A DNA stretch of 64,000 nucleotides, taken from the NCBI RefSeq assembly GCF_963921235.1, contig NC_086097.1:41790001-41854000 (forward strand). Direction: 5' to 3'. The notes under the pieces are model-generated. The model had not been told where the DNA came from. It made no database searches and was given only the letters and a program-made list of their open reading frames with translations. The translations under genes and the position numbers were made by a program. The stretch is from Mobula hypostoma (taxonomy: Eukaryota). This document shows, piece by piece, positions 2,581-60,100 of this stretch. Within the stretch, counting starts at the first letter, position 1, and each line of letters starts with the position of its first letter.

Positions 2581-3319
2581 CTCATTCTCTCATTGTTTCA
2601 CAAGCAGCAGCTGGATTGCTGGCCAGAAGCAATTTCAAGTAGTTTTATTATTTTAAGCAGCCACAAATAAATCTTGTCATTGCTTTACAATGCATATAAT
2701 AGTATCCCTTTATTCAAAGAAGAAACTGTTGTTTGTGCTGAATGAACAGTGTCCTGCATCATTGATCCTATATCCTCCTATTCAAGGGTTTAAATGAAGG
2801 CCTCAGTTCTGTTGTGTGCAAGCTCTGGGCTTGTTTATTGGTACCACAGCCTTTCTGTGCCCTCAGTCCCTCAGTCACTGCCTTGTTCAATCTTGTCAAA
2901 CAGTCTGCTTCGCTACAATTATTTGTAGCTGGAGTCCCTTGTCATCGCATCGAATATTCAAGTAATCTACTGGAATTCCTCTGTTTTTCCATTGAGAAGA
3001 AAGAAAATACATTTGAGTGTCACATGTTAAGTGCTTGATTGCACTTCTAGCTCAGTGCCCTCTTTGGTAGCCATTAAAGCTTACGTAGAAACTGAGAACT
3101 TCTATTGGCTGCTGTCACTGTAGTGTCTGTTCTTTGAATCAAAGAGATTCATTCCTTTCACTGATTTATTCAATGTTGGGACCAATTAGGACTTATTGAT
3201 TACATTACTCATTCTAATGTCTTACGTTGGCACCATCGGATCTAAAGTCACAAAATTGTGGGTTCTTCTCTGTCCTCTCCATCCAGTGAAAACAAAAAAT
3301 TATCTCAGCTGAAAATCAA

Positions 3320-3440
3320 AAACTGAAGAGGATGTCAATCTGAAATAAAAACGAGAAGGGATTTCAACCTGAAACATCACCACTGTTTCTCTTTCACATA
3401 GCTACTACTGGCCTACTGCATGTTTCCAGCAGGTTCTGAA
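3320..3440 (+). mobile_element. Degenerate Penelope pseudo-LTR with decayed hammerhead core
   Basis: 'gagaagggatttcaacctgaaacatc...tactggcctactgcatgtttccagc' is similar to 16855-16930. Confidence 0.45.
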
Positions 3441-12857: not shown

Positions 12858-14396
12858 CAGTATATTCAGATGTTTTCCATTTATTAATCTACCTGACTTG
12901 AAGTTTCCATATGGGTCAAGATATTTCAAGTCATTCTGAAACTTGTAGCTTTGAATAGTTCATCCCTTTTGTAGACATACAGGACTCCTGTTCTTATGTG
13001 CTGAATAGAGGATGTGGTAAATGTGGTGGATTACTTTGCTGTGGAATGAGCATGGTACAATTTTTTCAAACCTTAAGGGGAACTTAACTTAAGAGGAAGT
13101 GGGGAGCAGATGTTCTTTTGGTAAGGTTGGGAGAGCAAGTGGACTTCAGCAAGAAAGGTCAAGAGGCAATATCTAGTCTAAGTAAAATGTGAACTTTGAA
13201 TTGATTGCATGCATGCAATTGAATAGAGTGTGCAGATTTTGACAGTTATCTTAGAGCAAGTGGAACCACAGATAGAACCCAAATAAATTATTACAGCAAA
13301 TAAACTTTCACTCTTCATGATCTTTCATGTGAGCAGCCCATTTTATTTTGACTTTTAAGCAAATCTCTTCTTTATATTCCATTGAAAGAAATACAGAAAG
13401 GTTATGAAGGTGAAAATTGGCTCCTTATCATTTGATGGGCTTTACCAGAACAATTGGATCTTTATTTCAAGTTAAAAAATCTGAAAATTGCTGTCAGTAA
13501 GCAGGATGTGCTAGAATGCAGAAGCTAGCCTGGATAAGAAGCTGCAGGATGCTGCAGGAGTGGAAATACATCTTTATATACAAAAGGCATTTGGCTACAA
13601 AACTGAAGGTTAAAAGAGCAGTGCTCAAACTGGAGTCACTCAGACTGCGACAGGGATGAGTACAGGGGAGCTCGGTCATTTCCAATCTACATTTATGATT
13701 TGATCTTAGAAATTGAAAGTACAATTTAAAAATTTGTAAATAACAACAACTCTTCTGAGTATTGAGCCTAAACAAAAAATGCCATTAAACCCCCATTCTG
13801 CAAATTTGTTCGTTGATACGTTTATTTACAGTACCTATCTATGCACCGCATACGAGGTGGGGCAATTCTGGAGAAAGGGTCCAGAGAACACAGAGTGCTA
13901 GCTAAACCTGCTGAGCGGGTTTGAGAAAGAGTGGTCACACGTCATTAAAAATGATTATACAAAATTCTATGTTGTAGAAGACTAATATTGAGTCCTGTGC
14001 AAAACAGCAAGCATGTTGCCTCAGCTGAGTCGATATGCTTAGAAAACAAAGCTGGTATACATTATTCTCTGCAAACTGGAAGATGGAGGAAAACGCGGAG
14101 GCAAAACGCTTTGTCCTCAGTAAGGCAGAGGCAGAACGTTCTGTCCTCAGTAAGGCGGGGGAAGAACGCTTTGTCCTCAATAAGGGCCTCACCTTTGTCC
14201 CCCTTCGCCCACACCTCAGCGAGTTCCGTGTTCACCATGATGGGGAACTCTTCTTCCGCTGTCTCCATCTCCGAGCCTACTTCTTCGGCAAAGACTCATA
14301 CACCCCCACCGATGACCCCTTCTCCCGTCTACAACCCTCCTCCTCTTCATGGACACCCCGCTCTGGTCTTCTGTCTGCTCTGGATCTCTTTATCCG

Positions 14397-16552
14397 GAGG
14401 CAGAATGCTCTGTCCTCAGTGAGGGCCTCACCTTTGTCCCCCTTCGCCCACACCTCAGCGAGTTCCGTGTTCGCCATGATGGGGAACTCTTCTTCCGCTG
14501 TCTCCGTCTCCAAGCCTACTTCTTCGGCAAGGACTCATCCACCCCCACCAATGACCCCTTTCTCCCGTCTTCAACCCTCCTCTTCTTCATGGACACCCCG
14601 CTCTGGTCTTCTGCCTGCTCTGGATCTCTTTATCGCTAACTGCCGACGGGACATCAACCGTCTTGACTTCATCGCACCTTGTTCCCATTCCAACCTCACT
14701 CCTTCGGAATGCTCTGCTCTCCAATCCCTCCGCACTAATCCTAACCTTATTATTAAACCCACCGATTAGGGGGGTGCTGTTGTAGTCTGGCGTACTGACC
14801 TCTACCTTGCCGAGGCACAGCGACAACTCGCGGATACCTCCTCTTATTTACCCCTCGATCGTGACCCCACTAAGGAGCACCAGGCCATTGTCTCCCACAC
14901 CATCACTGACTTTATCCGCTCAGGGGATCTCCCATCCATTGCTACCAACCTTATAGTTCCCACACTCCGCACTTCCCATTTCGACCTCCTACCCAAGATC
15001 CACAAACCTGCCTGTCCTGGCCGACCTATTGTCTCAGCTTGCTCCTGCCCCACCGAACTCGTTTCTGCATACCTCGACACGGTTTTATCCCCCCCTTGTT
15101 CAATCCCTTCCTACCTATGTTCGTGACACTTCTCACACTCTTAAACTTTTCAATGATTTTAAGTTCCCTGGCCCCCACCGCTTTATTTTCACTATGGATA
15201 TCCAGTCCCTATATACTTCCATCCCCCATCAGGAAGGTCTCAAAGCTCTCCGTTTCTTTTTGGATTCCAGACCCAATCAGTTCCCCTCTACCACCACTCT
15301 GCTCCGTCTAGCAGAATTAGTCCTTACTCTTAACAATTTCTCCTTTGGCTCCTCCCACTTCCTCCAAACTAAAGGTGTAGCTATGGGCACCCATATGGGT
15401 CCTAGCTATGCCTGCCTTTTTGTTGGCTTTGTGGAACAATCTATGTTCCGTGCCTATTCTGGTATTTGTCCCCCACTTTTCCTTCGCTACATCGACGACT
15501 GCATTGGCGCTGCTTCCTGCATGCATGCTGAGCTCGTTGACTTTATTAACTTTGCCTCCAACTTTCACCCTGCCCTCAAGTTTACCTGGTCCATTTCCGA
15601 CACCTCCCTCCCCTTTCTAGATCTTTCTGTCTCTGTCTCTGGAGACAGCTTATCCACTGATGTCTACTATAAGCCTACTGACTCTCACAGCTATTTGGAC
15701 TATTCCTCTTCTCACCCTGTCTCTTGCAAAAACACCATCCCCTTCTCGCAATTCCTCCGTCTCCGCTGCATCTGCTCTCAGGATGAGGCTTTTCATTCCA
15801 GGACAAGGGAGATGTCCTCCTGTTTTAAAGAAAGGGGCTTCCCTTCCTCCACTATCAACTCTGCTCTCAAATGCATCTCCCCCATTTCACGCACATCTGC
15901 TCTCACTCCATCCTCCCGCCACCCCACTAGGAATAGGGTTCCCCTGGTCCTCACCTACCACCCCACCAGCCTCTGGGTCCAACATATTATTCTCCGTAAC
16001 TTCCGCCACCTCCAACAGGATCCCACCACTAAGCACATCTTTCCCTCCCCCCCCTCTGCTTTCTGCAGGGATCGCTCCCTATGCAACTCCCTTGTCCATT
16101 CGTCCCCCCCATCCCTCCCCACTGATCTCCCTCCTGGTGCTTTTCCTTGTAAGCGGAACAAGTGCTACACATGCCCTTACACTTCCTCCCTTACCACCAT
16201 TCAGGGCCCCAGACAGTCCTTCCAGGTGAGGCGACACTTCACCTGTGAGTCGGCTGGGGTGATGTACTGCGTCCGGTGCTCTCGATGTGGCCTTCTATAT
16301 ATTGGCGAGACCCGACGCAGACTGGGAGACCACTTTGCTGAACACCTACGCTCTGTCCGCCAGAGAAAGCAGGATCTCCCAGTGGCCACACATTTTAATT
16401 CCACATCCCATTCCCATTCTGACATGTCTATCCATGGCCTCCTCTACTGTAAAGACAAAGCCACACTCAGGTTGGAGGAACAACACCTTATATTCCGTCT
16501 GGGTAGCCTCCAACCTGATGGCATGAACATCGACTTCTCTAACTTCCGCTAA
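14397..16552 (+). pseudogene. Penelope-type reverse transcriptase / GIY-YIG endonuclease, disrupted
   Basis: RT motifs MDIQSLYT, GVAMGT.MGP.YA and RYIDD; Cys linker CKRNKCYTC; VMYCVRCSRCGLLYIGET..EH..H. There is a premature TAG at 14767-14769 (in xDKGG), a frameshift at the C-run near 15090 and probably others near the 5' end. Confidence 0.9.
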
Positions 16553-16848
16553 TGCCCCACCTCCCCCTCGTACCCCATCCGTTATTTATTTTTATACACA
16601 CATTCTTTCTCTCACTCTCCTTTTTCTCCCTCTGTCCCTCTGAATATACCCCTTGCCCATCCTCTGGGTCCCCCCCCCCACCTTGTCTTTCTTCCCGGAC
16701 CTCCTGTCCCATGATCCTCTCGTATCCCCTTTGCCAATCACCTGTCCAGCTCTTGGCTCCATCCCTCCCCCTCCTGTCTTCTCCTATCATTTTGGATCTC
16801 CCCCTCCCCCTCCCACGTTCAAATCTCTTACTAGCTCTTCCTTCAGTT

Positions 16849-16884
16849 AGTCCTGACGAAGGGTCTCGGCCTGAAACGTTGACT
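16849..16884 (+). ncRNA. Minimal type I hammerhead ribozyme motif
   Basis: AGTC-CTGACGA-AGGGTCTCGGCCT-GAAA-CGTT-GACT: stem I AGTC/GACT, both core boxes, a stem II hairpin and a palindromic ACGT stem III. Confidence 0.85.
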
Positions 16885-17084
16885 GTACCTCTTCCTAGAG
16901 ATGCTGCCTGGCCTGCTGCGTTCACCAGCAACTTTGATGTGTGTTGTTAGATGGAGGAGAAAGTTGGCTGATATTTTTCAGAAAATGAAAGGGGTTCATA
17001 GGAAAAGCTTTGAATTCTGGGTAGTCCAAAACTAAATGTGCTAAGTATAAAATCAGGGCTAACAAATCAGATCGGTAATGCCAA

Positions 17085-17268
17085 CACAAAATGCTGGAGG
17101 AATTCAGCAGGCCAGGCAGAATCTATGGAAAAGAGTGAACAGTCAACATTTCAGACCAAGACTCTTCATCAGAACTGGAGAAACAAAGATGAGAAGTCAG
17201 AGCTAACTTTCATCCAGCATTGTGTGTGTGTTGTTTGGATTTCTAGCATCTGTAGATTTTCTCTTGTA
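17085..17268 (-). mobile_element. ORF-less Penelope pseudo-LTR mini-element with decayed hammerhead (17141-17176, minus)
   Basis: The minus strand reads AGTT-CTGATGA-AGAGTCTTGGTCT-GAAA-TGTT-GACT. Flanks are ggtaatgccaa (17074-17084) and ggtaataccaa (17269-17279). Confidence 0.75.
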
Positions 17269-17665
17269 GGTAATACCAAATAAATTTCTTTGTCAAAAAT
17301 GCAGTAGGAATATGAACGGAGTTACCTAGAAGAGGCATATGAAAGGAAGTGTATGTAAATTACAGAGGATTATTTAGTCCATCACCTTCACTGAGGAGCC
17401 CAGTTAGTTCTGAATGTCTTCCAGGCCCTCTTTTCTACAGTTTTCATATTGAATTGTTTGTCAGATGCCCTTGTGAAGCATTTTAAATCTCTGCCAATTG
17501 TTGTCTCTCAGTCAATGCATTGATAACCCCCTCCATTCATTGTCTAGGATATTTGTCTCTGATTCTTTGCCAATAACCCTAAATTACTGGTGCCCTTAGA
17601 TTAATAGAAACAGTTAATCTTTATTTTCTTTATCTAAGTGCTTCATGAATTCAAATGTCAAACTC

Positions 17666-19417: not shown

Positions 19418-20292
19418 GGGGAGTCAAGTTAGGAAAAGGGGAAGTACAACGAGATCTAGGTGTTCTTGTACATCAGTCACTGAAAGCAAGTCTGCAGGTA
19501 CAGCAGGAAGTGAAGAAAGCTAATGGCATACTGGCCTTCATAACAAGGGGGATTGAGTACAGGAGCAAAGAGGTCCTTCTGCAGCTGTACAGGGCCCTGG
19601 TAAGACCACACCTGGAGTATTGTGTAAACACAAAATAATGATGAAGGGTTCCGGCCCGAAACGTCGACTGATCTTTTCCACGGATGCTGCCTGACCTACT
19701 GAGTTCCTCCAGCGTGTTGTGAGTGTTGCTGGAGTATTGTGTGCAGTTTTGGTCTCCAAATTTGAGGAAGGACATTCTTGCCATTGAGGGAGTGCAGCGT
19801 AGCTTCACAAGGTTAATTCCCGGGATGGCAGGACTGCCATATGTTGAAAGATTGGAGCGACTGGGCTTGTATACACTGGAATTTAGAAGGATGAGAGGGG
19901 ATCTGATTGAAACATATAACATTATTAAGGGATTGGACACGCTGGAGGCAGGAAGCATGTTCCTGCTGATGGAGGAGTCCGGAACCATAGGCCACAGTTT
20001 AAGAATAAGGGGTAGACCATTTAGAACGGAGTTGAAGAAAAACTTTTTCACCCAGAGAGTGGTGGATATGTGGAATGCTCTGCCTCAGAAGGCTGTGGAG
20101 GCCAAGTCTCTGGATGCTTTCAAGAAAGAGATGGATAGAGCTCTTAAAGATAGCGGAATCAAAGGTTATGGGGATAAGTCAGGAACTGGATACTGATTGT
20201 GGATGGTCAGCCATGATCACAGCGAATGGCGTGCTGGCTTGAAGGGCCAAATGGCCTACTCCTGCACCTATTGTCTATTGTCTATTGTCTAT
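19418..20292 (+). mobile_element. Young 5'-truncated CR1 LINE interrupted by a mini-element
   Basis: ORFs 19333-19638 and 19723-20196 are the same-frame CR1 RT C-terminus. The sequence is very similar to 38420-39165 and ends in a (TATTGTC)n tail. Confidence 0.92.
19626..19728 (+). mobile_element. 103-bp hammerhead-bearing Penelope-derived insertion
   Basis: Perfect 14-bp TSD CTGGAGTATTGTGT at 19612-19625 and 19729-19742. Contains TGATGA-AGGGTTCCGGCCC-GAAA-CGTC-GACT. Confidence 0.9.
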
Positions 20293-25914: not shown

Positions 25915-26112
25915 CAGCGGTCCCCAACCTCCGGGCCGCAGACTGGTACTGGGCCGCGAAGCATGCAGGGGTGCAGTGGTAGCCGAAACGCACCCAGCAT
26001 GTCTTTAAGAAAAAAGCCGAAATTTTGGCTTTTTTCTTAAAGATGTGCTGGATGGGTTCCGGCTACCGCTGCACCCCCGCATGCTTCGCGGCCCGGAGTT
26101 TGGGGACCACTG
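25915..26112. mobile_element. Palindromic hAT (Charlie-like) MITE
   Basis: 8-bp TSD ATTTAAAT at 25907-25914 and 26113-26120. TIRs CAGCGGTCCCCAA / TTGGGGACCACTG. The body is almost fully self-complementary. Confidence 0.92.
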
Positions 26113-26282
26113 ATTTAAATGACCAACCAAACTTTCATAGACCACGCACCATCTCACCTGCATTGAAGCTAGAAGTGGGTAAGTTGGAGGTATGCTGTTG
26201 TTGGGATTTAGGTTTCTAAAAGGTATGCATCCCACCTGATCCAAACACTTTTGTGGAGATATTTCAGCATGTGTAGGTAGCA

Positions 26283-26480
26283 AATGCCAGAAACACTCAG
26301 CAGCTCAGGTAGACTTTGTGTAGAGAAAAACAGTTCACATTTTAGATCGAAAACTCTTCTTTAATTTTGATGAAGGTTCATCAACCTTTAACATTTAGTC
26401 TATTTTCTTCTCTCTCCAGATGAAGCCTGATGTGTTTAGTATTACTACATTCTCTTTTTTTAAATTTGTTCTCAGGTGTC
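26283..26480. mobile_element. Old inverted Penelope pseudo-LTR remnant
   Basis: 'aaatgccagaaacactcagcag...' followed by 'ttgatgaaggttcatcaacctttaacat', a decayed hammerhead core. Confidence 0.5.
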
Positions 26481-27239: not shown

Positions 27240-30200
27240 TTACATTAAATGAAAATATTGAATAAAAGATCTCCAGGTCTGTTCAAATTTAAGTGAGGAA
27301 TCATAAAGATTACTTATAATTTTCTCCAAATTCAAGCATAATATCGTCTGAGAAAACCAAAAAAAGGTGGTTGGAGCATTAAGCTCTTTCCAATGTTGTA
27401 AGATACATCTTTTCTCTGCCACAGCAAACTGTTGAGGCCGGTTCATTGGCTATGTTTAAGAGGGAGTTAGATATGGCCCTTGTGGCTACAGGGGTCAGGG
27501 GGTATGGAGGGAAGGCTGGGGCGGGGTTCTGAGTTGGATGATCAGCCATGATCATAATAAATGGCGGTGCAGGCTTGAAGGGCCGAATGGCCTACTCCTG
27601 CACCTATTTTCTATGTTCTATGTCTATGTCTATGTTTTCGCCATTAAAGTAAGAAATGCAATCATTCTACGGGCTGAAGGAGAAAGATTACTGGAAATTT
27701 TAGGTAGTCCAAAGATAGCAGTAATAGGGTGAGGAGAGATAGCTATATTCAATACCTTTGAGATAATATTAAAAATGTCTCTCCAAAAGTTTCCAGAGTA
27801 GGACAAGACCAAAACATATGAGTTAAAGAGGCTATCTGCCCCGGACATCTATCACAAAAAGGATTAATATGAGAATAAAAGCGAGCTAATTTATCTTTGG
27901 ACATATGTGCTCTATGAACAACTTTAAATTGAATTAGGGAATGTTTAGCACAGATAGAGGAAGTATTGACTAATTGTAAGATCTGCCCCCAGTCATCCAC
28001 GGAAATGATAGAACCCAATTCCTGTTCCCAATCTACCCTAATCTTATCAAATGGAACTTTCTTAAGTTTCATAATAATATTATAAGTCATAGCCGATGTA
28101 CCTTTCTGACATGGATTAAGGTTAATTATAGTATCTAAAATGTATGTAGGAGGAAGCATTGGAAAGGAAGAAAGTATAGTACTTAGGAAATTTCTAACTT
28201 GTAGATATCTAAAAAAATGTATTCTTGATAAATTATATTTGTTAGATAATTGTTCAAAAGACATAAGGGAACCATCTAAAAATAAATCCGAAAATCGTGA
28301 AATACCCTTAGTCTTCCAAATTTGAAAAGCACGATCTGTAAAAGAGGGAGGAAAAAATATGTTACCTAAGATAGCCCAAATTGGTTAAGATCAAAAAATT
28401 TTCTGAATTGAAACCAAATACGTAAGGTATATTTAACTATCGGGTTAGATACCTGTTTGAGGTGTTTCAAATCAAAAGGAAGAGAGGAACCTAAAATAGA
28501 GCCAAGTGTATAGCCCTGAACAGATTGTAATTCCAATGCTACCCATTTGGGAATGGATAGTATATCCTGGTCAAGTAACCAAAATTTCATATGTCGAATA
28601 TTAATTGCCCAATAATATAATCTAAAGTTAGGTAATGCTAAACCTCCATCTCTCTTAGATTTCTGTAAATGTATTTTACCCAGTCTCGGGTTTTTATTTT
28701 GCCAAATAAATGAAGAAATTTTTGAGTCAACTTTATCAAAAAAAGATTTTGGAACAAAAATCAGTAATGCCTGAAATATATATAAAAATTTTGGCAGAAA
28801 AAACATCTTAACTGCATTAATACTACCAATCAAAGTTAAATATAAAGGAAACCATTTAGATGAAAGTTGAATAATATGGTCAATTAAGGGTAAAAAGTTA
28901 ATCTTAAATAAATCTTTGTGTTTACAAGTAATTTTAATCCCAAGATATGAAAAATAATTATTAATCAATTTAAACAGAAAGTTATGACATAAGGGAAGTT
29001 GTTTATTAACCGGGAAAAGTTCACTCTTACTAAGATTTAATTTATAACCTGAAGAGAAACTAAATTGTGCTAATAACTCTAAAACAGCAGGGATGGATTT
29101 TTGAGGATTAGAAATATATAAAAGTAAGTCATCAGCATAGAGTGATATTTTATGGGACTTTAAGCCCCGAGTTATCCCAGTAATATTTGGAGATTCTCGA
29201 ATGGCAATTGCAAGAGGTTCTAATGCAATATCAAATAATAAAGGACTAAGAGGACAACCTTGTTGAGTACCTCGAAAAAGAGGGAAAAAAGGTGAGCTTA
29301 AAGAGTTAGTACGGACCGAGCCCACAGGAGAATGATATAACAGTTTGATCCAGGATATAAATTTCGAGCTGAAATTAAACATTTCAAGCACCTTAAATAA
29401 GTAAGGCCATTCTACTCTATCAAAAGCTTTCTCAGCATCTAAAGAGATAACACACTCAGGAACATTTTGTGAGGGTGTATAAACAATATTTAACAGTGTG
29501 CGAATGTTATAAAAAGAGTAACGACCTTTAATAAAACCCGTTTGGTCTTCCGAAATAATAAAAGGAAGTACTCTTTCTAATCTGTTTGCTAATAACTTAG
29601 AAAAAATTTTAGAATCAACATTTAATAAAGATATTGGTCTATCAGATGCACATTGAGCAGGATCTTTATCCTTCTTTAATATTAGAGAGATTGACACTCT
29701 ATTGAAAGATTCGGGAAGTTTACCAAGTTTTAATGAAGCCTCGAAAACCCTACAGAACCAAGGGATTAATGAAGGTGCAAAACATTTACAAAATTCTGCG
29801 GTAAACCCATCAGGGCCAGGAGCTTTCCCCAGATTCATAGAGGAAATAACATTCTTAATCTCATCAGTGGTAATTGGAGTATCTAGCATAGAAGACATAT
29901 CCTGTGAAATCTCAGGGAAGTCTAGGTTATCTAAAAAATCATTCATATATTTAGAGTCTCGAGAAGACTCTGATTGATGTAAGGAAGAATAAAAATCAAA
30001 GAAGGTTTGATTAATCCCCGCATGATCAAGTATCAGTCGATCATTTTGATTATAAATCTGATTCATTTGAGATTTAGCATAATTAGACTTCAATTGGTTA
30101 GCCAACAGATTGCCAATTTTGTCACTGTGTACATAAAATTCACTTCTCGTTTTCCTTAATTGGTTTACAATCGAGGACGAAAGTAATAAACTGTGTTCCA

Positions 30201-31219
30201 TTTGAAGTTCAGTTCTTTGTTTATATAACTCCTCAGAGGGAGCTGTAACATATTTCTTATCAATTTCCTTAATCTTATCCACAATTACCAACTCCTCCTG
30301 CTTCAGCTTCTTCCTCAAAGCAGCAGAATACAAGATAACCTGACCACGAATATAAGCTTTAAAAGTATCCCAAAGAATGTTCACAGAAATATCCTCTGTA
30401 TAGTTGATTGTAAAAAAAAGATCAATCTGTTCATTCATAAATTTAACAAAGTCCGAATCCTGAAGCAACAGCGAATTAAAACGCCATTGTCTATTATTTT
30501 GTGTATTGGCCTGAATTTTAATAGAAAGCTTAAGTGAAGCATGATCCAAAATGGTTATAGAGTCATAATCACATTTAATCACTGAAGAAATAAGATGAGA
30601 GTCAATAAAGAAATAATCAATTCTTGAATAGGAATGGTGAACATGTGAAAAAAAAGAAAAATCTTTTTCCTGAGGATGCAAAAAACGCCAAATGTCCGTC
30701 GACCCAGAATCAGAGAGGAATGAATTAATCAAAGTTGCAGATTTATTAGGTAAGGTCCGTAGAGGAGCCGAACGGTCCAAAGCTGGAGACAAGCAGGTAT
30801 TAAGATCTCCGCCCCAGATCATTCAAATTCGGGAACTGATTGAATAATGATTTATAAAATTCCAGATAGTCCATATTGGGAGCATAAACATTAACCAAAA
30901 CTACCTTTTTATTAAATAGTAGACCACTACCCAGTAGAAATCTACCATTCGGATCAGAGATAATATCATGTTGTATAAAAGTAACTGAGGAGTCTATAAA
31001 AATAGAGACGCCTCGAATCTTAGCATTAGAGCTCGAATGAAACTGTTGTTCCTTCCAGAATTTAAAAAAACGTAATTTGTCCCCCCTCCGCACATGGGTC
31101 TCTTGTAAAAATAGAATTTGTGCTTTAAGTCTCCGGAACACTTTAAAAACTTTTTTCCTTTTAATAGGATGGTTAAGACCATTAGTATTCCAGGAGACAA
31201 AATTAATAATAGACTCCAT
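27240..31219 (-). pseudogene. L1 ORF2 (APE endonuclease, RT, C-terminal Cys-rich domain), frameshifted
   Basis: SWNTNGL, LQETH, GGDLN, SRIDYFF, SLDAEKAFD, QGCPLSP, YADD, C..C....H.FW.C. It is split over several frames and interrupted by a CR1 insertion. Confidence 0.93.
27415..27634 (+). mobile_element. CR1 3' end inserted into L1 ORF2
   Basis: CR1 tail with (CTATGT)n. It splits 'LTLMAK|RCIL', with TTTTC repeated on both sides. Confidence 0.85.
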
Positions 31220-31923
31220 AAACCCTAAAGTCAACCCGCAAAAAGGAGGATTGACGATAGGCTCGACCCACGAACCCGGAAAGGGAACAGAACAAATAAG
31301 AGATACCGGGAAGGAGAACGCAACCAATACTTCAATAGTGTACATAGCCCAAGAAGAAAGAAACTAAAACGTGAAGCCCCTCCCACCACCCCCTACCCCA
31401 TGACCTCAAGGCTAAATCTAAAACAGACCAGCCAGAAAGAAGCAAGCACTAAAACTACCCCCATGACTTCCGATAGACGCTCCCTAAAAAAAAGTGTAAA
31501 TATAAAAAAGATCAGCTAGTTATAAAACAGTAAAAGAATAAAAAAAGTAAATCAATTAAAACAAACACTTAATATAACAAAGAAAAAGCCAGAAAATATA
31601 AAAAAAACGCAACAAACCCCAGACCCTATGAATAAACAAAAATAGAAATGAAAATATTAACATAAACTAGCTATGAAAACCTACAAAAAAAAGATTTAAA
31701 AACTACAAAATTTAAGGCCTCAAAGGAAATACGTAGAATGACGTTGAGGGAATAACCACCCAGAATCCCCTGGGAAAAAGAAAGGAATGACGCAGATAGA
31801 AAGAAAGTTTAGCAGCCATATTAATTAATCAAAAATAAACTTTTCTGCCCATGTAAGGCAAAAAAAAATTAAGGCCGACAGATTCACAACCTCCGATCAA
31901 ATGGAGATAGTTAAAAATTACGA

Positions 31924-32769
31924 TTAAGATGTTGAAGGTGAAAATTGATCCAGATAACTCTGGGCATCCGATGGAGATTCAAAAAAACGGAGGGCTCCAT
32001 CCAACGTACGGATCCTTAGACGTGCTGGGTAAAGCAGCGCTGGTTTTAAATCCATCTTGTAGAGTTCCGACATCACAGATCTGTAACGAACCCGTTGATC
32101 CCGAATTGGTTTACTGAAATCCTCCACGAATCGGAAACTAAGATCCGAAAAATCAATGTAACCTTTAGATCGAACCAATCGAAACAGTTTCTCCTTGTCT
32201 TGAAAGTAATGAAAACGTAAGATGACATGTCGAGGTTTATCTGACTTAGACGAGTTTGATGGAACTCTGTGAGCCCGATCCAATAACAGTGGTTGGTCAG
32301 GAAATACAGTAGGAAATGCATCTTTTAAAAGTTGAGAAAAAAACTTCATAGGGTTGTCAGATTCCACAGCTTCACGCACACCAATCATTCGAAGATTCCG
32401 CCGTCGCATTCTGGATTCTAAGTCAGAGTTTTTAAAGGTCAGAAAGTCAAGTTTTTCTTCATTATAGTAATTGTTTCTTCAATTTTCCCCATCTTGAGTT
32501 CATTTTATTGCGTGGATTTTTGAAGATTAGATATAGCCGACTGATGTTCCGTAATAGATAATTGTACTTTATCGATTGAATCGGCAATTTTCTGGAAATT
32601 AATTGAAATTTCCGAACGAATCAGTTCCGTAATAGAGGTTGAAATTTCCCTTTGAGTTAGATCCGATATAGCTTTCAGAGTCAAAGGTGGTTCAGTCGGG
32701 GGGGAGATCGGTACCTTTCGGTCTAACTGGAGGTTTGCCGTCTTTCCCATTTTTTCCATTCTTAGACAT
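31924..32769 (-). pseudogene. L1 ORF1 (coiled coil plus RRM/CTD, Transposase_22-like), disrupted
   Basis: 'SRMRRRNLRMIGV.E', 'DRAHR', 'PRHVILRF', 'LLYPARL'. A heptad-like region lies upstream. Frameshifts and a stop are present. Confidence 0.88.
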
Positions 32770-33878: not shown

Positions 33879-34393
33879 AAACACAAAAAAACCTGCAGAT
33901 GCTGAAAATTCAAGCAACACACACAAAATGCTGGTGGAATGCAGCAGGCCAGGCAGCATCAATAGGAAGAAGTACAGTTGACGTTTCGGGTTGAGACCCT
34001 TCGTCAGGACTAACGGAAAAAAGAGATAGCAAGAGATTTGAAAGTGGGAGGGGGAGGGGGAGACCCGAAATGATAGGAAAAGACAGGAGGGGGAGGGACG
34101 AAGCTAAGAGCTGGGAAGTTGATTGGCAAAAGGGATAAAAGGCTGGAGAATGGGGAGTATCATAGGACAGATGGCCTTAGAAAAAAAGAAAACGGGAGGG
34201 GAGCATCAGAGGAAGATGGAGAACAGGCAAGGAGTTATTGTGAGAAAAAAAGAGAGAAGAGGAAGAAAAAAATAAATAAATAGGAGGGATGGGGTAAGAA
34301 GGGGAGGAGGGGCATTAACGGAAGTTAGAGAAATTAATGTTCATGCCATCAGGTTGGAGGCTACTGAGACAGAATATAAGGTGTTGTTCCTCC
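33879..34393 (-). mobile_element. Penelope-like element 3' fragment (end of endonuclease plus pseudo-LTR)
   Basis: Reverse complement of 16474-16945, plus the extra terminal segment 'gcatctgcagg'. Confidence 0.88.
33976..34011 (-). ncRNA. Minimal type I hammerhead ribozyme motif
   Basis: The minus strand reads AGTC-CTGACGA-AGGGT-CTCA-ACCC-GAAA-CGTC-AACT. Confidence 0.8.
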
Positions 34394-35165
34394 AGTACTC
34401 TATTGCAGTCTGACCAATGCCTTATAAAGTCTCAGCATTACATCCTTGCTGTTGTATTCTAGAACTCTTGAAATGAATGCTAAAATTGCATTTGTCTTCC
34501 TTACCACTGACTAAGTATGCAGGTCAACATTCAGGGAATCCTCCACAATTAAACTCAAGTCATTTTGCACCTCTGGTTTTGAATTTTCTCACCTTAGAGC
34601 AAATAATCTAGTTTTTATTTCTTCTGCCCGAGTGCTTGCCCATACACTTCCCAAGATTGTATTCCATCTGCCACCTCTTTGCTCATTCTCCTAATCTGTC
34701 TAAGTCCTTCTGCTGACACCCTGCTTCCTTTGCACTTCCTGTCCCTCTGCCTATCTTCATATTGTCTGTAAAGTTGGCCTCAAAGTCATCAATTCCATCA
34801 TCCAAATCATTGAAATATAACCTAAAAAGAAGCAATCCCAACACTGACCCCTGCAGAATGCAAAAGTTTCCCATTATTCCCACTTTTTGCCTCTAGCCAG
34901 TCAGCTGAACTTCTGTTTTTTCTGTTGTTTTCAGAAGTAGTTGATTTTAAAACCGGTCAGGACCAGCCTGCAACACATACTTTCAAGGTCAGCAGAAGTG
35001 CAGCAAGTGAAAGGAATTAGTCAATTTATCAGCCAATATAAGCAAAGTTGCTTTAGGGGAGCAGCCTTGTGAGAAAAGTGCAAGTCTTTGGCTCGAGAGT
35101 CTTCGGCAAGGAGGCTGAGGGAGGAGACTACGCCACAGTTGGAGAGGGTGAGAGGTGGTGAAGAA

Positions 35166-36263: not shown

Positions 36264-39076
36264 AGTAATGGATTAAAAGTATTCTATATGAATGCACGAA
36301 GTATAAGAAATAAAGTGGATGAGCTTGAGGCTCAGTTGGAAATTGGCAAGTATGATGTTGTAGGAATAACAGAGACATGGCTGCAAAAGGACCAGGGCTG
36401 GGAAATGAATATTCAAGGATATATACGCCCTATCGGAAGGACAGACAGGTGGGCAGAGGGGGTGGGGTGGCTCTGTTGGTGAGCAATGAAATTCAGTCCC
36501 TTGCAAGGGGTGACATAGGATCAGGAGATGTAGAGTCAGTATGGATAGAACTGAGAAATTGTAAGGGCAAAAAGACCCTAATGGGAGTTATCTACAGGAC
36601 CCCAAACAATAGCCTGCATATAGGGTGCAAGTTGAATCAAGAGTTAAAATTGGCATGTCGCAAAGGTAATGCTACAGTTGTTACGGGTGATTTGAACATG
36701 CAGGTAGACTGGGAAAATCAGGTTGGTACTGGACCCCAAGACAGGGAGTTTGTGGAGTGCCTCCAAAATAGATTCTTAGAACAGCTTGTACTGGAACCTA
36801 CCAGGGAGAAGGCAATTCTGGATCTAGTGTTGTGTAATGAACCGGATTTGATAAGGGAACTCGAGGTAAAGGACCCATCAGGAGGTAGTGACCATAATAT
36901 AAGTTTTAAACTACAATTTGAGAGGGAGAAAGGAAAATCGAAAGTGTCAGTATTACAGTTGAACAAAGAGGACAATGGAGCCATGAGGGAGAAGCTGGCC
37001 AAAGCTGACTGGAAAGGTACCCTAGCAGGGATGACAGTGGAACAACAATGGCAGGTATTTCTGTGAATAATACAGAAGGTACAGGATCAGTTCATTCCAA
37101 AGAGGAAGAAAGATTCTAAGGGGAGTAAGGGGCGACTGTTGCTGACAAGGGAAGTCAAGGACAATATAAAAATAAAAGAGAAGTATAACATAGCAAAGAT
37201 GAGCTGGAAGCCAGAGGATTGGGAAACTTTAAAAGAGCAACAAAAGATAACTAAAAAGGCAATATGGGGAGAAAAGATGAGGTACGAAGGTAAGCTAGCC
37301 AAGAATATAAAGGAGGATAGTAAAAGTTTCTTTAGGTATGTGAAGAGGAAAAAAATTAGTTAAGACCAAAGTTGGGCCCTTGAAGACAGAAACGGATGAA
37401 TTTATTATGGGGAACAAAGAAATGGCAGATGAGTTGAACAGGTACTTTGGATTTGTCTTCACCAGGGAAGACACAAACAATCTCCCAGATGTAATAGTGG
37501 CCAGAGGACATAGGGTAATGGAGGAACTGAAGGAACTTCACATTGGGCAGAAAATGGGGTTGGATAGACTGATGGGACTGAAGGCTGATAAATCCCCAGG
37601 GCTTGATAGTTTGCATCCCAGGGTACTTAAGGAGGTGGTTCTAGAAATCGTGGATGCATTGGTAATCATTTTCCAATGTTCTATAAATTCAGGATCAGTT
37701 CCTATGCATTGGAGAATACTAACGTTATCCCACTTTCTAAGAAAGGAGGGAGAGAGAAAACAGGGAATTATAAACCAGTTAACCTGACATCAGTAGTGGG
37801 GAAGATGCTGGAGTCAATTATAAAAGATGAAATAGAGGCATATTTGGATAGCAGTAACAGGATCGGTCCGAGTCAGCATGGTTTTATGAAGGGGAAATCA
37901 TGCTTGACTAATCTTCTGGAATTTTTTGAGAATGTAATGACGAAAATGGACAAGGGAGAGCCAGTGAATGTAGTGTACCTGGACTTTCAAAAAGCCTTTA
38001 ATAAGGTCCCACATATGAGATTAGTGGGCAAAATTGGAGCACATGGTATTGGGGGTAGGGTACTGACATGGATAGAAAATTGGTTGGCAAACAGCAAACA
38101 AAGAGTAGGGATTAATGGGTCCCTTTCAGAATGGCAGGCGGTGACTAGTGGGGTACCGTAAGGCTCACTGCTGGGATCACAGCTGTTTACAATATATATT
38201 AATGATTTAGATGAAGGGATTAAAAGTAACATTAGCAAATTTGCCGATGACACAAAGTTGGGTGGCAGTGTGAAACGTAAGGAGGATGTTATGAGAATGC
38301 AGGCTGACTTGGACAGGTTGGGTGAGTGGGCAGATGCATGGCAGATGCAGTTTAATGTGGATAAATGTGAGGTTACTCACTTTGGTGGCAAGAACAGGAA
38401 GGCAGATTACTATCTGAATGGTGTCAAGTTAGGAAAAGGGGAAGTACAACGAGATCTAGGTGTCCTTGTTCATCAGTCACTGAAAGTAAGCATGCAAGTA
38501 CAGCAGGCAGTAAAGAAAGCTAATGGTATGTTGGCTTTCATAACAAGGGGAGTTGAGTATAGGAGCAAAGAGGTCCTTCTGCAGTTGTACAGGGCCCTGA
38601 TGAGACCACACCTGGAGTATTGTGTGCAGATTTGGTCACCAAATTTGAGGAAGGACATTCTTGCTATTGAGGGAGTGCAGTGTAGATTCAGGAGGTTAAT
38701 TCCCGGGATGGCAGGACTGTCATATGTTGAAAGATTGGAGCAACTGGGCTTGTATACACTGGAACTTAGAAGGACGAGAGGGGATCTGATTGAAACATAT
38801 AAGATTAAGGGATTGGACACGCTAGAGGCAGGAAACATGTTCCCAATGTTGGGGGAGTCCAGAACCAGAGGCCACAGTTTAAGAATAAGGGGTAGGCCAT
38901 TTAGAACGGAGTTGAGGAAAAACTTTTTCAACCAGAGAGTTGTGGACCTGTGGAATGCTCTGCCTCAGAAGGCAGTGGAGGCCAATTCTCTGGATGCTTT
39001 CAAGAAAGAGTTAGATAGAGCTCTCAAAGATAGTGGAGTCAAGGGATAGGGGGAGAAGGCAGGAACGGGGTACTGA
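36264..39076 (+). pseudogene. CR1 ORF2 (APE endonuclease plus RT), disrupted
   Basis: YMNARS, ITETW, GDLN, GSDH, QHGF, YLDFQKAF, SGVP, KFADDTK, RPHLEYC. Multiple stops and frameshifts. Confidence 0.92.
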
Positions 39077-39169
39077 TTGTTGATGATCAACCATGATCAC
39101 AGAGGATGGCAGTGCTGGCTCGAAGGGCCGAATGGCCTACTCCTGCACCTATTGTCTATTGTCTATCCA

Positions 39170-50329: not shown

Positions 50330-52530
50330 TTAAGTTAGTAAGTTGGATCCAAGAGTGCTTTGGTCATAGAAGGTACGAGGCAGTGGTGATGAAGTGTTTC
50401 TCTTGCTAAAATTCGCTGCACAAGGATTAGTGTTGTGACCTATGTTTTCCATGATAAAAATAAGGTTTGAATGAGACGTGGTCTGATTCGTAAATTTGCA
50501 GAAGACACAAAGATTGGTGAATATGCGGACAGTGTGAAAGATTGTCAAATGGCACAGCAGGATGTAGATCAGTTTGAAATTTGGTAGAGAAGAGGCAGAT
50601 GGAATTAAATCTGGACAGTTATGAAATGGTCCATTTTGGGAGGTCACTTGCAAGAGGAAAATATATAGTAAATGGCAAGAGTCTTAAGGGCATTGATGGA
50701 CAAAGGGGTCTTGAGGCACAGTTCCATTGCTCTCAATGAAAGTGGATAGGATGGTAAGGAAAACATACAGCATGCTTGTCTTCATTGGTTGGGATGTTGA
50801 GTATAAAAGTTGGGAAGTCTTGTACGAAACTTTAGATGACCACATTAGGAGTATTGTGCGTAGGTCTGGTCACAGCACTATCGAAAGAAGTTGTTCTCCA
50901 GAATGTTGCCTAGTTAGTATTAGCTATGCGGAGAGATTGGTCAAACCTGGATTGCTCTGTCTAGAACAATAGCGGCTGAGTGGTGACCTGATGGGAAGTA
51001 TATAGAGTTGTGAGAGGCAGAGTCTTTTTCTCAAGGTGGAAATGTCAAATATGAGGGGACATATCCTGAAAGAGCAAAAGGTTCTAAGGTTCAAAGGTTC
51101 ATTTTACTGTCAAAGTATGCATGTACAATATAACTCTGATAACTGTCTACTCCAGATAGCCATTAAATACATGGGTGTAGTTGAAAGAAAAGACATCAAC
51201 TCACCCTCAACCTGCATGAAAAGGAAAAGAAACAAAAACTCACAGGCCCCAAAATCCAACCCCCCCCCCGCCTGCAGCAAAAACAGGCACAAAAACAATC
51301 AACAATCTTCTACAAAAACATCCCTAACTCTTTCACTGGCAGAAAAGAACACTGATTTTATCAAACATTGAAATTATGTTGTGTAGAAAATGCCCTAGTT
51401 GAGTTGGAAATATTAATTACCATCTGTTCTCTTAAAAAAAAGAAAAGAACAGCAGCAGTAGCACCAAATCCCCCAACACCCTTCCCCCCCCACACACACA
51501 AAAAAACTCGCCAGTCAACCACAAGAGAGAAAACACAGAAAAACTGAAGGACACCAAAATACAGTCCAATAGTCAGATAAATCTTAGAAACCACATCGTA
51601 AAGAGTGACTGCTGACCTGGGCCCCAGCGCCGCCCACCCAGGGCCAAACCACGCCAAACTGGATCAGAATGCTGACTCGGGGCCAAACGCACCAATCCGG
51701 CTGCCGACTGTCTCGTGCCAAGTCATCGCTGACCCCCTTGGCATTCACCTCAATCTTCCTCACTGCCTCAAGTTATTCATAATCCCTCACTGGTCTCTGG
51801 TCTTTTCCACAAAAGCAGCTAACAAATGCTTGGTGATGAGGCAGTGGTAATGGACTTAACGTGTGAATTTTTAGTCATTCCATGCTGAATTTTTGGACTA
51901 AACTAAATGTAACATGGAAGATAGAACAGTACAGTGCTGGAGAACAGTACAGAACAGTGCACAAATCAGCTTGTGTTCTCAGGCCTTTTTGTGGAGCAGA
52001 CTCAATGAGCCAAATGGCCTAATTATGCTCCTAAACCTTATATCTTATGGCTTTTTCGGCTCCATGTCTCTGATCTCCACGAGACAGCTCTCCTGACACA
52101 GCACAGCGCTGGATCCTTTGATGGAGATTGAAACTGGACGTCACCGGCTTCCAACAATTTCCTTAACACAAGCAAGACAAAAAGAACAAGCAGAAGGCGT
52201 AGAAAAAGTGAAATAATTGGAAAAGGTCATCTATGGAAGATGTCGCCCGAAGAATCGTTCGCTGGCGCCATCTTGACCGGAAGAGGGAAGTTTAAGGGAG
52301 ATTATTGAGGCAAGCATTTTACACAGAAAGAGTTAGGTACCTGGAATGTGCTGCCAGGAGAGCTGGCAGAAGCAAATACAATTGTGACAATTGAAAGGCA
52401 TTTAAACATACATATGAACAGGCTTAGAATAGAGGGAATGGATCACATGAGTTAAATTGGCATTGTGGTTAGCACAGGTGTGGCAGGCTGGAAGGAATTG
52501 TTCCTGCACTGTCCTGTTCTATCTTCCATG
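50330..52530 (+). mobile_element. Old CR1 RT/3' fragment interrupted by 51087-52283
   Basis: Decayed KFAEDTKIG near 50495 and the RT C-terminus. The CR1 sequence resumes at 52284. Confidence 0.75.
51087..52283 (-). mobile_element. ORF-less non-autonomous retroelement
   Basis: The 5' end is CTTCCGGTCAAGATGGCG and the 3' end is 'tactttgacagtaaaatgaacctttgaacc'. It is nested in a CR1. Confidence 0.65.
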
Positions 52531-52899
52531 TTACATTTAGTTTAGTCCAAAAATTCAGCATGGAATGACTAAAAATTCACACGTTAAGTCCATTACCACT
52601 GCCTCATCACCAAGCATTTGTCAGCACAGTACACTGCCTCTTTAATAGACGTTGTAGTGCATTTCACAAAAGGAATGAGAAAATAGTTTTCTTTTTAGAT
52701 CCTGCAATACTGGATAAGAATTTCCACCTTGTTGATTTCTTCCTATCTCACTATCTATGCTTTCTCTGTGTAATCATCTAACTTAATTGACTGATCTCTC
52801 TTAAAAATATGCAATGGATTGAATTCCTAGTCTATTTGATATATGTCATTGTGACTCAGAAGAAAGTTTTCAGTCTATCAGCTCTATGCTGAATTTCAA

Positions 52900-56824: not shown

Positions 56825-57959
56825 ACATCCACCTGCTGTGTTCTCTCCACTGTCCTTATTATTTTCATTAAGAACTCCAGTAAATTTCTCCAACAGGACC
56901 TGCCCTTCATGAATCCATGCTGTGTTTGCCTGATGGAACCACTTCTATCCAGGTGACTCAGTATTTCTTTCCTGATGATAGTTCCAAGCATTTTTCCGAT
57001 CACATACATTAAGCTAATCGGCCTGTAGTTGCTCTCCTTTTGCTAAGATCCTGCATCCTTTTTTATACAGTGGCATGATATTCACTGTCTTCCAATCCAT
57101 TGGGGCCTACCCAGAGTCCAGAGAATTTTGGGAAATTATCACAAAAGCATCTACTATAACTTCAGCTATTTTATTCAGTACCCGGGGGGTGTCACATTGG
57201 GACCAGGGGACTTGTCTCCTTTAATGTCCACTATTTTGTTCATCATTTCCTCTTTCATGACAGCAATTATATCAAGGTCCTCACCTCCCATTGATTCCAT
57301 AACATCTCCCTTGGGCATGTCAACTGTGTCCTCCACCATGAAGATCAACACAAAATAGTTGCTCAAGGCTTTGGCCATTTCCACATTACCCAATATTAAC
57401 ATTGAAGGCCAATGACATTCATCAAAATTGAGAAAAGTTAATAATCAAAAATGCTGTAAGTTTCATAGATGTGGAGAGGTGGAGAGAATGAAGGCGATGA
57501 CTGTAATGGGGTGGAAACCCAAAGAGACATTTGAACATACAGCCTAGGAGCAGGAGCAGGCAACTCTGCCACTTCCTAACATGGTTGATCAAGATCAATC
57601 TTAAGTCCACATTCCTGTCTATCCTTCTTAACCTTTCATCCTTATACTCTATCTTATCTAACACCATCTCAAAAATATTAAAAAAGCTCTCTTTCCACTG
57701 CTCTTTAGAAAGAGGATCCTGGTTCTCAATCTGCTCCAATCTTGCCCGTAAAAACTCCTTAAGATCTTGTATATTTCAATCAATTCCCTGTTAATAAATT
57801 CCAGTTAATTAAAAAGAAGTTTGTCCAAACTTTCCTGATGACATAAACCCCACTCCACCCCCCATTCCAGGTATTACGTTTTCATATTTCTCTCTTCCAC
57901 TTGCTTTAAAGTCAATGCTGATTCTCAAGCAATCCCAGTCCCCCATCTCTGGCCCTCTT

Positions 57960-60100
57960 GCTCACATTGTCAATCAAACCCCTCCCCATACTCCTATCAC
58001 CAACCAGTTTACAATCCTCAGTCCTATGTCCCTAGTGAGTTCCGCACCCGCCATGATGGTGAGTTCTTCTTCCGTTGCCTTCATCTCCATCCCTGCTTCA
58101 TTGGCAGCCCACTCTGATGATCCCTTCTTCCAGATTCAACCCTCCTCCTCTTCCCGGACAGCTTGCTCTGGTCATCTGCCTTTTCTGGATCTTTTTATCA
58201 ATAATTGCCCACAAGACATCAATCACCTCAGCTGTAAAACTGCTCTCTCCAATTCTAACCTCACTCCCTCTGAATGCACTGCTCTCCACACTAATCCCAA
58301 CTTCTCCATCAAACTGGCAGATAAGGTGGGGGGAGGGTGCTGTAGTAGCCTGGCTAACTGACTGCTACCTTGCTGAGGCCCAGCAACAATTCTCAGACAC
58401 CTCCTCTTACTTACCCCTTGAAAAGGACCCCACTAATGAGCACCAGGCCATTGTCTTCTGCACCATCATCGACCTGAATGACCCTGGGGTCTTCCATTCA
58501 TTGCATCTTAGTTGCATTTTTTCCAGCATCCCGTACCTGTTTCTACCTCCTACCCAAGATCTATAAAACCACCTGTTCAGGTCGCCCCATTGTTTCTGCT
58601 TGTTCCTGCCGCACTGAACTTGTGTCTGTATACCTCATCTCTGTTTTATTCCTCCCCACCCCCCCCCCGCCCTGTTTCAATCCTTTACTACCTACATCCA
58701 TGACAGTTCACACGCTCTTGATATTTTCTTGGCCCTGATTGTCTCATTTTCACTATGGACACCCAGTCCCTATACACCTCCATCCCCCATCAGGAAGACT
58801 TTAAAACTCTCACTTCTTTCTAGACAACAGACCCAACCAATTCCCCTCCACCACCACTCTCCTCCATCTGGTGGAACTGGTCCTCACTCTCAATACTTCC
58901 TCTTCGGCTCCTCCCACTTCCTTCAAAGCAAAGGTGTAGCCATGGATACTTGCGTGGATCCCAGTTATGCCTGCATTTTTTTCGGCTACGTGAAGCAGTC
59001 CATGTTCCAAGCCTACAGCAGCATGTCCTCAACTCTTCCTACACTAGATTGATAACTGCATTGGTAATGCTTCCTGCACCTATGCTGAGCTCATCGACTT
59101 CATCAATTTTGCCCCCAGCTTCAACACTGACCTCAAATTTACTTGATCCATTTCCAATACCTCCTTCCCCTTTCTTGATCTATCTGTCACTGTCTCTGTA
59201 AACAGTCTATCTACTGATATTTTTTATAACCCCACTGACTTTCACAACTTCTGGATTATACCTCTTCTCATCCTGTTACCTGATAAATCTCATCCCTTTC
59301 TCTCAGTCCCCCCTTCTCCACTGCATCTTCTCTCAGAATGAGGCTTTTCATTCCAGAATAACTGAGACATCCTCCTTCTTCAAAGAAAGCAGTTTCCCTT
59401 CCTTCACCATCATCGCTGCCATCACCCGCATCTCTTCATTTTTAACGCACATCTGCCCTCGACCCATTCTCCGGCCGCCTCACCAGAGAGAGGGTTCTTC
59501 TTGTCTTCACCTACACATCCAGCACATAATTCTCCATAACTTCTCCCATCTCCAATGGGATTCCACCACCAAACACATCTTTCCCTCCCCCCAACTACCT
59601 GCTTTCTGCAGGAATCAAACCCTACACAACTCCTTTGTCCACTTGTCACACCTTGTTGATCTCCTTCCTGGTACTTCTCCTTGCAAGCGGAACAAGTGCT
59701 ACACCTGCCCTTACAACTGCTCCCTCACTACCACTCAGGGCCCCAAACAGTCCTTCCAGGTGAGGCAACACTTCACCTGTGAGTCTGTTGGGGGTCATCT
59801 ATAGTATTCAGTGCTCCCGATGTGGCCTGTTGTATATCGATGAGACCCGAGATAGATTGGGAAACTGCTTTGCTGAGCACCTTTTCTCCATCTGTCAGAA
59901 AAAGCAGGATCTCCTGGTGGCCACCAATTTCAATTCTACTCCCCATTCCCTTTCTGACATATCAGTCCATGGCCTCCTCTTCTGCTGCAATGAGGCCACA
60001 CTCAGGTTGGAGGAGCAACATCTTATATTCTGTCTGGGTAGCCTCCAACCTGCTGGCGTGAACATCGATTTCTCAAACTTCTAGTAATCGTCCCACCCAT
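57960..60100 (+). mobile_element. Older, heavily mutated Penelope-like element (RT plus GIY-YIG), pseudo-LTR missing
   Basis: Collinear with 14450-16555: LADKVG, YLLPKIYK, GRPIVS, GVAMDT, 'VIYSIQCSRCGLLYIDET', 'EEQHLIF'. Confidence 0.9.

Follow-up and report, generated by a model that had tools for sequence, protein, structure and literature searches.

The 64,000-nucleotide stretch of the Mobula hypostoma genome analyzed here (the window) carries, inside a truncated LINE, a 103-bp insert flanked by an exact 14-bp duplication and made up of two oppositely oriented pieces of a Penelope-like element (PLE). The features of the locus are as follows.

19420-20292, forward strand: 5'-truncated 3' fragment of a CR1 LINE, the host, ending in (CTATTGT)n (paralogues in the window, tandem end, family depth and variants)
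19612-19625, forward strand: left copy of the target site duplication (TSD), over the CR1 codons L-E-Y-C-V (exact repeat, single occurrence in a paralogous CR1)
19626-19638, reverse strand: inverted arm, the last 13 nt of a PLE tail (12/13 to the tail end at 33879-33891)
19639-19728, forward strand: direct arm, the 90-nt 3' end of a PLE pseudo-LTR, which stops at the tail start (identity to three copies; contigs that run on into the tail)
19639-19669, forward strand: remnant of a minimal type I hammerhead within the direct arm, from U4 onward, with stem II, GAAA, CGTC and the 3' strand of stem I (alignment, folding)
19729-19742, forward strand: right copy of the TSD, the first 2 nt of which (CT) match the tail start

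Target site and host element

The 14-mer CTGGAGTATTGTGT is found exactly at both 19612-19625 and 19729-19742, cannot be extended on either side, and encloses the insert (19626-19728). A paralogous CR1 at 38420-39166 (ca. 90.5% identical) contains the 14-mer once and lacks the insert, and in the contigs of four public runs the CR1 family reads straight across the insertion point. The duplication is therefore a real TSD, as the initial annotation had proposed. The duplicated 14 nt encode L-E-Y-C plus two bases of V, and the CR1 frame (...VRPHLEYC / LEYCVQFWSP...) is open both before and after the insert, which confirms the duplicated codons that had been described there. Loose contig ends at 19625 and 19729 show that the CR1 family is normally continuous at these positions; none of the 24 loose ends listed (1135 more exist) falls at 19626, a weak negative result, and no listed contig of runs X1, X5, X9 and X15 spans the insert at this site. 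The 3' boundary can be placed only to within 2 nt because the CT that opens the right TSD copy could equally be the first 2 nt of the tail. Joints in the contigs that skip 115 to 124 nt were considered as an empty allele and dropped, because the same join arises from paralogous copies of the CR1. Likewise, a resemblance of the TSD to the tail, as would be produced by an endonuclease target preference, was rejected because 20% of random words score equally.

The host LINE, which is assigned to CR1 by family motifs and not by a database match, differs from the family majority in run X1 by at least 10 positions in 388 bp (ca. 2.6%), a figure that comes from the variants listed, with 50 more variant rows existing. 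Its unique left flank was found in contigs from organisms A, B and C; the contig from organism B extends 25 nt into the CR1, while that of organism C (run X9) departs at 19424, the CR1 start, with 36 unlike letters. The CR1 thus probably inserted after C had split off and before the split between A and B. As a side observation, the presence or absence of this CR1 may distinguish C from A and B.

The PLE stub is younger than the CR1 that hosts it. It retains 6 CpGs in 90 bp, as had been noted at first sight, compared to 4, 3 and 0 in the three pseudo-LTR copies of the window, and it keeps the CpG at 19681-19682 that is lost in ca. 42% of the family depth; at least one change (19698) is private to it. 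The insert is young in a relative sense only, and the initial description of a recent move holds to that extent. A perfect TSD was rejected as proof of a very recent insertion, since it would survive with a probability of ca. 0.48 even at the age of the CR1.

The direct arm and its hammerhead remnant

The stub is 80% identical over 70 bp to the neighboring pseudo-LTR (16854-16923) and 78% and 76% identical to the copies at 34006-33915 and 17171-17085, respectively. These values bear out both the divergence from the neighboring pseudo-LTR (16849-16948) and the assignment to a Penelope-mobilized piece that had been made from the letters, as one of the three copies follows an ORF with reverse transcriptase (RT) and GIY-YIG domains. 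At its 3' side the arm stops where the tail would begin: contigs continue past 19730 into the tail of the subfamily (209, 153 and 99 in runs X1, X5 and X9, respectively).

Hammerhead positions were numbered from established knowledge of the motif together with the available part of PMC4209133, according to which minimal type I hammerheads occur in metazoan PLEs. The remnant resembles those in the extra base between positions 9 and 10.1, the G10.1-C11.1 pair, the palindromic 15.2-16.2, the missing loop 3 and the short stem I, and differs from those described there in lacking C3 and the 5' strand of stem I. In intact copies the sequence is AGTC-CTGAYGA-A-stem II-GAAA-CGTY-GACT and stem I forms (AGUC with GACU), neither of which holds for the insert; an A (19638) stands in the place of C3. 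Alignment to intact copies thus upheld the initial observation that the insert starts inside the ribozyme core. An active minimal hammerhead has a complete core with C3 and a formed stem I, both missing here, and the remnant is predicted to be a passenger, incapable of cutting in cis. The predicted cleavage site (19665/19666) lies 27 nt to the 3' side of the junction at 19639, and the RNA that served as template must consequently have been uncleaved at that site. The C3-less start is probably not the norm of the family, since 12 contigs of X15 (a run guessed to be RNA) continue upstream of 19639 with an intact AGTCC.

The folding z-scores of the insert and the pseudo-LTRs (-0.97 to 1.14) were unremarkable, and an Rfam search of the sequence did not detect a hammerhead and returned only two weak unrelated matches. 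Co-folding of two hammerhead segments did not yield the expected dimeric stem III, and this result was set aside.

The inverted arm

The 13 nt at the 5' side of the insert match the tail end at 33879-33891 in 12 of 13 positions, although that copy belongs to another subfamily. Their local score against the tail end is matched by 0.08% of 5000 random window words, and 13-mers within one mismatch of the arm occur at three places on both strands of the window, the arm itself included. The motif ATTATTTT of the arm is also present in the contig consensus of the tail of the insert's own subfamily. This consensus is cut at 30 letters, at an agreement of 0.42 to 0.44, and the last 6 nt of the tail are taken from a copy of another subfamily; the version from X5, at an agreement of 0.44, contains CTGCAGATTATTTT. 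The reverse complement of 19626-19639, ATTATTTTGTGTTT, matches the tail consensus over 8 nt. The consensus match, the identity to the window tail and the rarity of the score among random words together identify the piece as an inverted tail end and connect the insert with the two-armed pattern described for PLEs. The inverted terminus reported earlier at this end is thus inverted indeed, but it derives from the end of the PLE tail and not from a pseudo-LTR terminus. Base 19639 (T) fits both arms, so that one base is shared at the inner joint, compared to two (CT) at the 3' joint.

Other PLE copies and repeats in the window

Three further PLE copies in the window serve for comparison.

14094-16948, forward strand: autonomous-type PLE (RT and GIY-YIG), 5' truncated and frameshifted, with a tail-less 3' end
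17085-17268: second two-armed PLE insertion, with a tail-less arm on the reverse strand (17204-17085) and a tail-bearing arm on the forward strand (17208-17268)
33879-34394, reverse strand: 5'-truncated PLE 3' end with a full pseudo-LTR and a 36-nt tail, the tail reference of the window

The large PLE at 14094-16948 has a candidate TSD (14081-14093 / 16949-16961, 12/13) and an ORF (14957-16552) upstream of its pseudo-LTR with an RVT_1 match (E value of 1e-5, below the Pfam cut-off), a cysteine-rich linker and a GIY-YIG-type end, the latter motif read by eye. The linker of P0001 contains CKRNKCYTC, the criterion for Neptune/Nematis in the accessible text of PMC8557442, and by this feature of its sequence the element appears to be of the Neptune/Nematis type. 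The closest named relatives of the protein are from Mobula hypostoma (87 to 92%) and Hypanus sabinus (78 to 89%) among the 120 matches listed of 627. For P0002 and P0005, RefSeq ray models of host genes (divergent protein kinase domain 1C and chitinase domain-containing protein 1) hold long stretches of the PLE ORF, either an annotation artefact or exonization. At the 5' end of the large PLE, a 30-bp unit is present ca. three times (14098-14185) and a 239-bp segment is tandemly duplicated at 93% (14156-14634), which suggests repeated template jumps.

The insertion at 17085-17268 is flanked by an 11-bp TSD (17074-17084 / 17269-17279, 10/11), and its arms measure ca. 120 and 61 nt. It shares with the insert a TSD, a tail-less arm and an opposed arm with tail sequence, with other breakpoints. 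The tail-less ends at 19728, 16948 and 17085 correspond to the same point of the element, beyond which the copy at 33879-34394 continues with its tail (33879-33914); window PLE copies thus display two fixed 3' ends bounding a tail of 30 to 40 bp. That the direct arm of the insert ends exactly where the large PLE and the 17085 arm end supports its reading as part of a two-armed PLE insertion. Three more two-armed candidates (1528-1656, 26280-26430 and 3290-3438) are older and decayed, were read by eye and show no clear TSD; a search for TSDs around the copies at 33879-34394 and 1528-1656 gave no convincing candidate. A profile built from the window copies detected 11 arms at E values up to 0.05 and none in the shuffled or reversed window. 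Among the window copies the outer ends are fixed and the inner joints variable, as would be expected from ordinary PLE integration.

A second, older PLE ORF (57891-60097, forward strand) is 74% identical to the first and stops just past its stop codon; a pseudo-LTR 3' end was not detected after it. At 3313-3374, behind a probable inverted tail, a 29-bp tandem duplication resembles two decayed hammerhead cores. Viral, metagenome and prokaryote collections were scanned for the motifs of the insert subfamily, and no locus matched.

The window also contains a MITE-like element (25916-26111), presumably of the hAT type judging by the length of its TSD (8 bp, ATTTAAAT). Its terminal inverted repeats are 25 nt long, it encloses a hairpin of 72 bp, and it explains a weak Rfam match to mir-559. 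Apart from this, there is an L1-clade LINE on the reverse strand (27749-32478), broken into four frames, with ORF1 (Transposase_22), an endonuclease, an RT frame open over 818 aa and zf-RVT, and a pair of 124-bp inverted repeats (51818-51941 / 52502-52625) that are 97.6% identical and ca. 560 bp apart.

A minimal two-armed PLE insertion

The combination of a TSD, an inverted 5'-truncated copy and a tail at one side only is a described PLE pattern, of which the insert is the smallest form; its homology to a pseudo-LTR, its inverted 5' copy and its TSD are traits of endonuclease-positive (EN+) PLEs. We consider it very probable that it represents a single, dead-on-arrival insertion of an abundant EN+ PLE of the ordinary two-armed type. 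The extreme 5' truncation initially offered as one reading agrees with a direct arm of only 90 nt that begins inside the hammerhead. According to the accessible sections of PMC8557442, PLEs show an inverted 5'-truncated copy with a one-sided tail of 30 to 40 bp, the tail being ascribed to endonuclease-mediated resolution, and the part of PMC3846280 at hand gives the same architecture in a rotifer, with 8- to 10-bp TSDs and self-priming as the proposed origin. Compared to the insertions in these two sources, as far as their available text goes, the insert has the same head-to-head arrangement of an inverted 5'-truncated copy, a tail at one end only, a TSD of similar size and another retroelement as target, while it is much shorter, with arms measuring 13 and 90 nt, has no ORF, and its inverted arm consists of tail sequence only.

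The data support target-primed reverse transcription as the origin of the insert. On the geometry of the arms, we lean slightly toward a twin- or dual-priming step from both nicks. The PLE protein would make a staggered cut in the CR1, with nicks 14 bp apart. One nick would prime cDNA synthesis at the RT start site located at the beginning of the tail, where 2 nt (CT) match, and this cDNA would copy 90 nt of uncleaved RNA, reaching into the hammerhead. The other nick would prime at the end of the tail and copy 13 nt. Each nick would thus use one of the two RT start sites, both cDNAs would end early, and they would be joined head to head over one shared base, with the loss of ca. 22 nt of tail. 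The template could be one RNA (twin priming) or two (dual priming).

Precedents for these steps can be found in other systems. In PMC11167929, the only paper on topic among the PLE mechanism literature found from 2023 onward, the protein of the PLE PAc (Poseidon of Anolis carolinensis) cuts both target strands and extends them, RT starts at two sites bounding the tail, and hammerhead cleavage is not required, uncleaved RNA being the main template. The insert agrees with these results in the two fixed 3' ends around a tail of 30 to 40 nt and, under the proposed mechanism, in the cleavage and extension of both strands and the use of uncleaved RNA; PAc belongs to the Poseidon clade, whereas the linker here is of the Neptune/Nematis type, and the target here is not AT rich. 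TSDs, twin priming and inverted insertions do not appear in the main text of that paper, as far as it was available. For L1, PMC2837659 describes the same geometry from twin or dual priming, with a very short tail arm; there, as here, a TSD-flanked inversion-deletion has one arm of a few bases from the 3' tail of the RNA (5' poly(T) in L1), TSDs average 14 bp and microhomology at the inner joint is little or none. L1 differs in that it primes on poly(A) and also at internal sites that vary, and not at fixed tail boundaries.

Alternative origins

The alternative that survives best is a refinement of the two-armed insertion, in which the inner joint is not random because the hammerhead fold, the self-complementary stem I or cleavage acts as a hotspot; we regard it as possible but rather doubtful. 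Six of the 11 window arms start at model columns 154 to 181, inside the hammerhead (153 to 189), and none starts between columns 190 and 223, which gives a P value of ca. 0.01 for 6 of 10 long arms under a constant stop rate, the short tail-bearing arm (column 227) being left out. However, only two of the six well-preserved long arms start in the hammerhead (P value of 0.40), decayed arms that are short easily escape detection, and the profile derives from the same window copies. The starts are scattered over 28 nt with none at the cut site, and the direct arm of the insert begins at the base of the predicted hairpin, on its 5' side, a position at which, by the fold prediction, the RT had already passed the hairpin. 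Of the early suggestion that the RT stopped at the ribozyme fold, what stands is the weak hint from the 6 of 11 arms, while the hairpin itself was read through. Run X5 adds joints from 19672 and from 19713 to 19639, with 1 or 6 letters between; the first, with 6 letters between, has a depth of 144 versus 46.5 in the unique flank. These come from the joints listed, 57 more rows existing, and the joint from 19672 to 19639 could represent the hammerhead core in a 40-nt tandem or, alternatively, a connection through stem I in head-to-head orientation.

A good deal less probable is a short, SINE-like nonautonomous family of ca. 130 nt (hammerhead, 3' pseudo-LTR and tail) mobilized in trans by PLE proteins, with the insert as one of its products. 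The stub is ca. 20% different from the pseudo-LTR of the neighboring PLE, the summed contig depth over it (which is not a copy number) is five orders of magnitude above that of the unique flank, and pseudo-LTRs alone can act in cis for trans-mobilization according to the available part of PMC3846280. Against this, contigs carry on upstream of the hammerhead into pyrimidine-rich sequence that resembles a pseudo-LTR, 4 of the 11 window arms extend upstream of it as well (two of them into the ORF), and most of the tail is missing from the 103-bp unit. The 5' ends of the 11 window arms vary, and the two X5 joints at 19639 are ambiguous.

It seems very improbable that the 13-nt piece is filler, either untemplated or made by fold-back synthesis on the 3' end of the target before a plain 5'-truncated copy: the left TSD end and the piece can form a short hairpin (ACACAA against the reverse complement of the TSD end, 7/12 at the best offset), but the 12/13 match is to the tail end of another subfamily's copy and near-matching 13-mers are as scarce in the window as given above.

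The least probable origin, with hardly any weight in our assessment, is a non-LTR retrozyme, the insert then being one monomer copied from an RNA, linear or circular, that had cleaved itself. According to bioRxiv 10.64898/2026.07.22.740005, the non-LTR retrozymes of vertebrates originate from PLE pseudo-LTRs and occur in the sole chondrichthyan sampled, and one of the X5 joints could be a 40-nt tandem of the core. As defined there and in PMC7229834, however, such retrozymes consist of units in tandem and contain two or more complete hammerheads. The insert resembles those described in the same texts in being ORF-less and hammerhead bearing, in its PLE pseudo-LTR origin and in its long TSD, but the core of its only hammerhead is broken, none of 22 tandem-repeat rows places an array at its site, and it contains an inverted arm, whereas a cleaved monomer would begin at 19666 and not at 19639, and a copy of a circle would be a circular permutation in one orientation, without an inverted tail end. 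A retrozyme origin of the insert is therefore unlikely. Nor do the data support the retrozyme or SINE-like unit that the initial annotation had offered as one of two readings, together with the tandem arrays it suggested looking for: the single hammerhead is dead, the scissile bond lies 27 nt beyond the junction, and family contigs extend further upstream with an intact AGTCC.

Implications for PLE integration

Taken alone, the two-armed insertion described here is one dead copy of an abundant element, and its value is that of a clean minimal example: as the empty site is known, the two arms and the three joints can be resolved base by base. If twin priming holds genome-wide, it would link the two start sites and two-strand extension observed in vitro to the hitherto unexplained inverted structure of PLEs. 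A broader proposal, which we advance only tentatively and hold to be improbable as a whole, is that PLEs routinely prime both nicks, one per fixed tail boundary, with the hammerhead as a hotspot for the inner joint; such a combination is unstated for PLEs in the literature found, which did not cover subscription papers. Were it true, the tiny two-armed copies filling ray genomes would be an in vivo record of both-nick priming, the inverted repeats and the one-sided tail of PLEs would be explained by one mechanism, and the ribozyme would gain a role in ending the cDNA.
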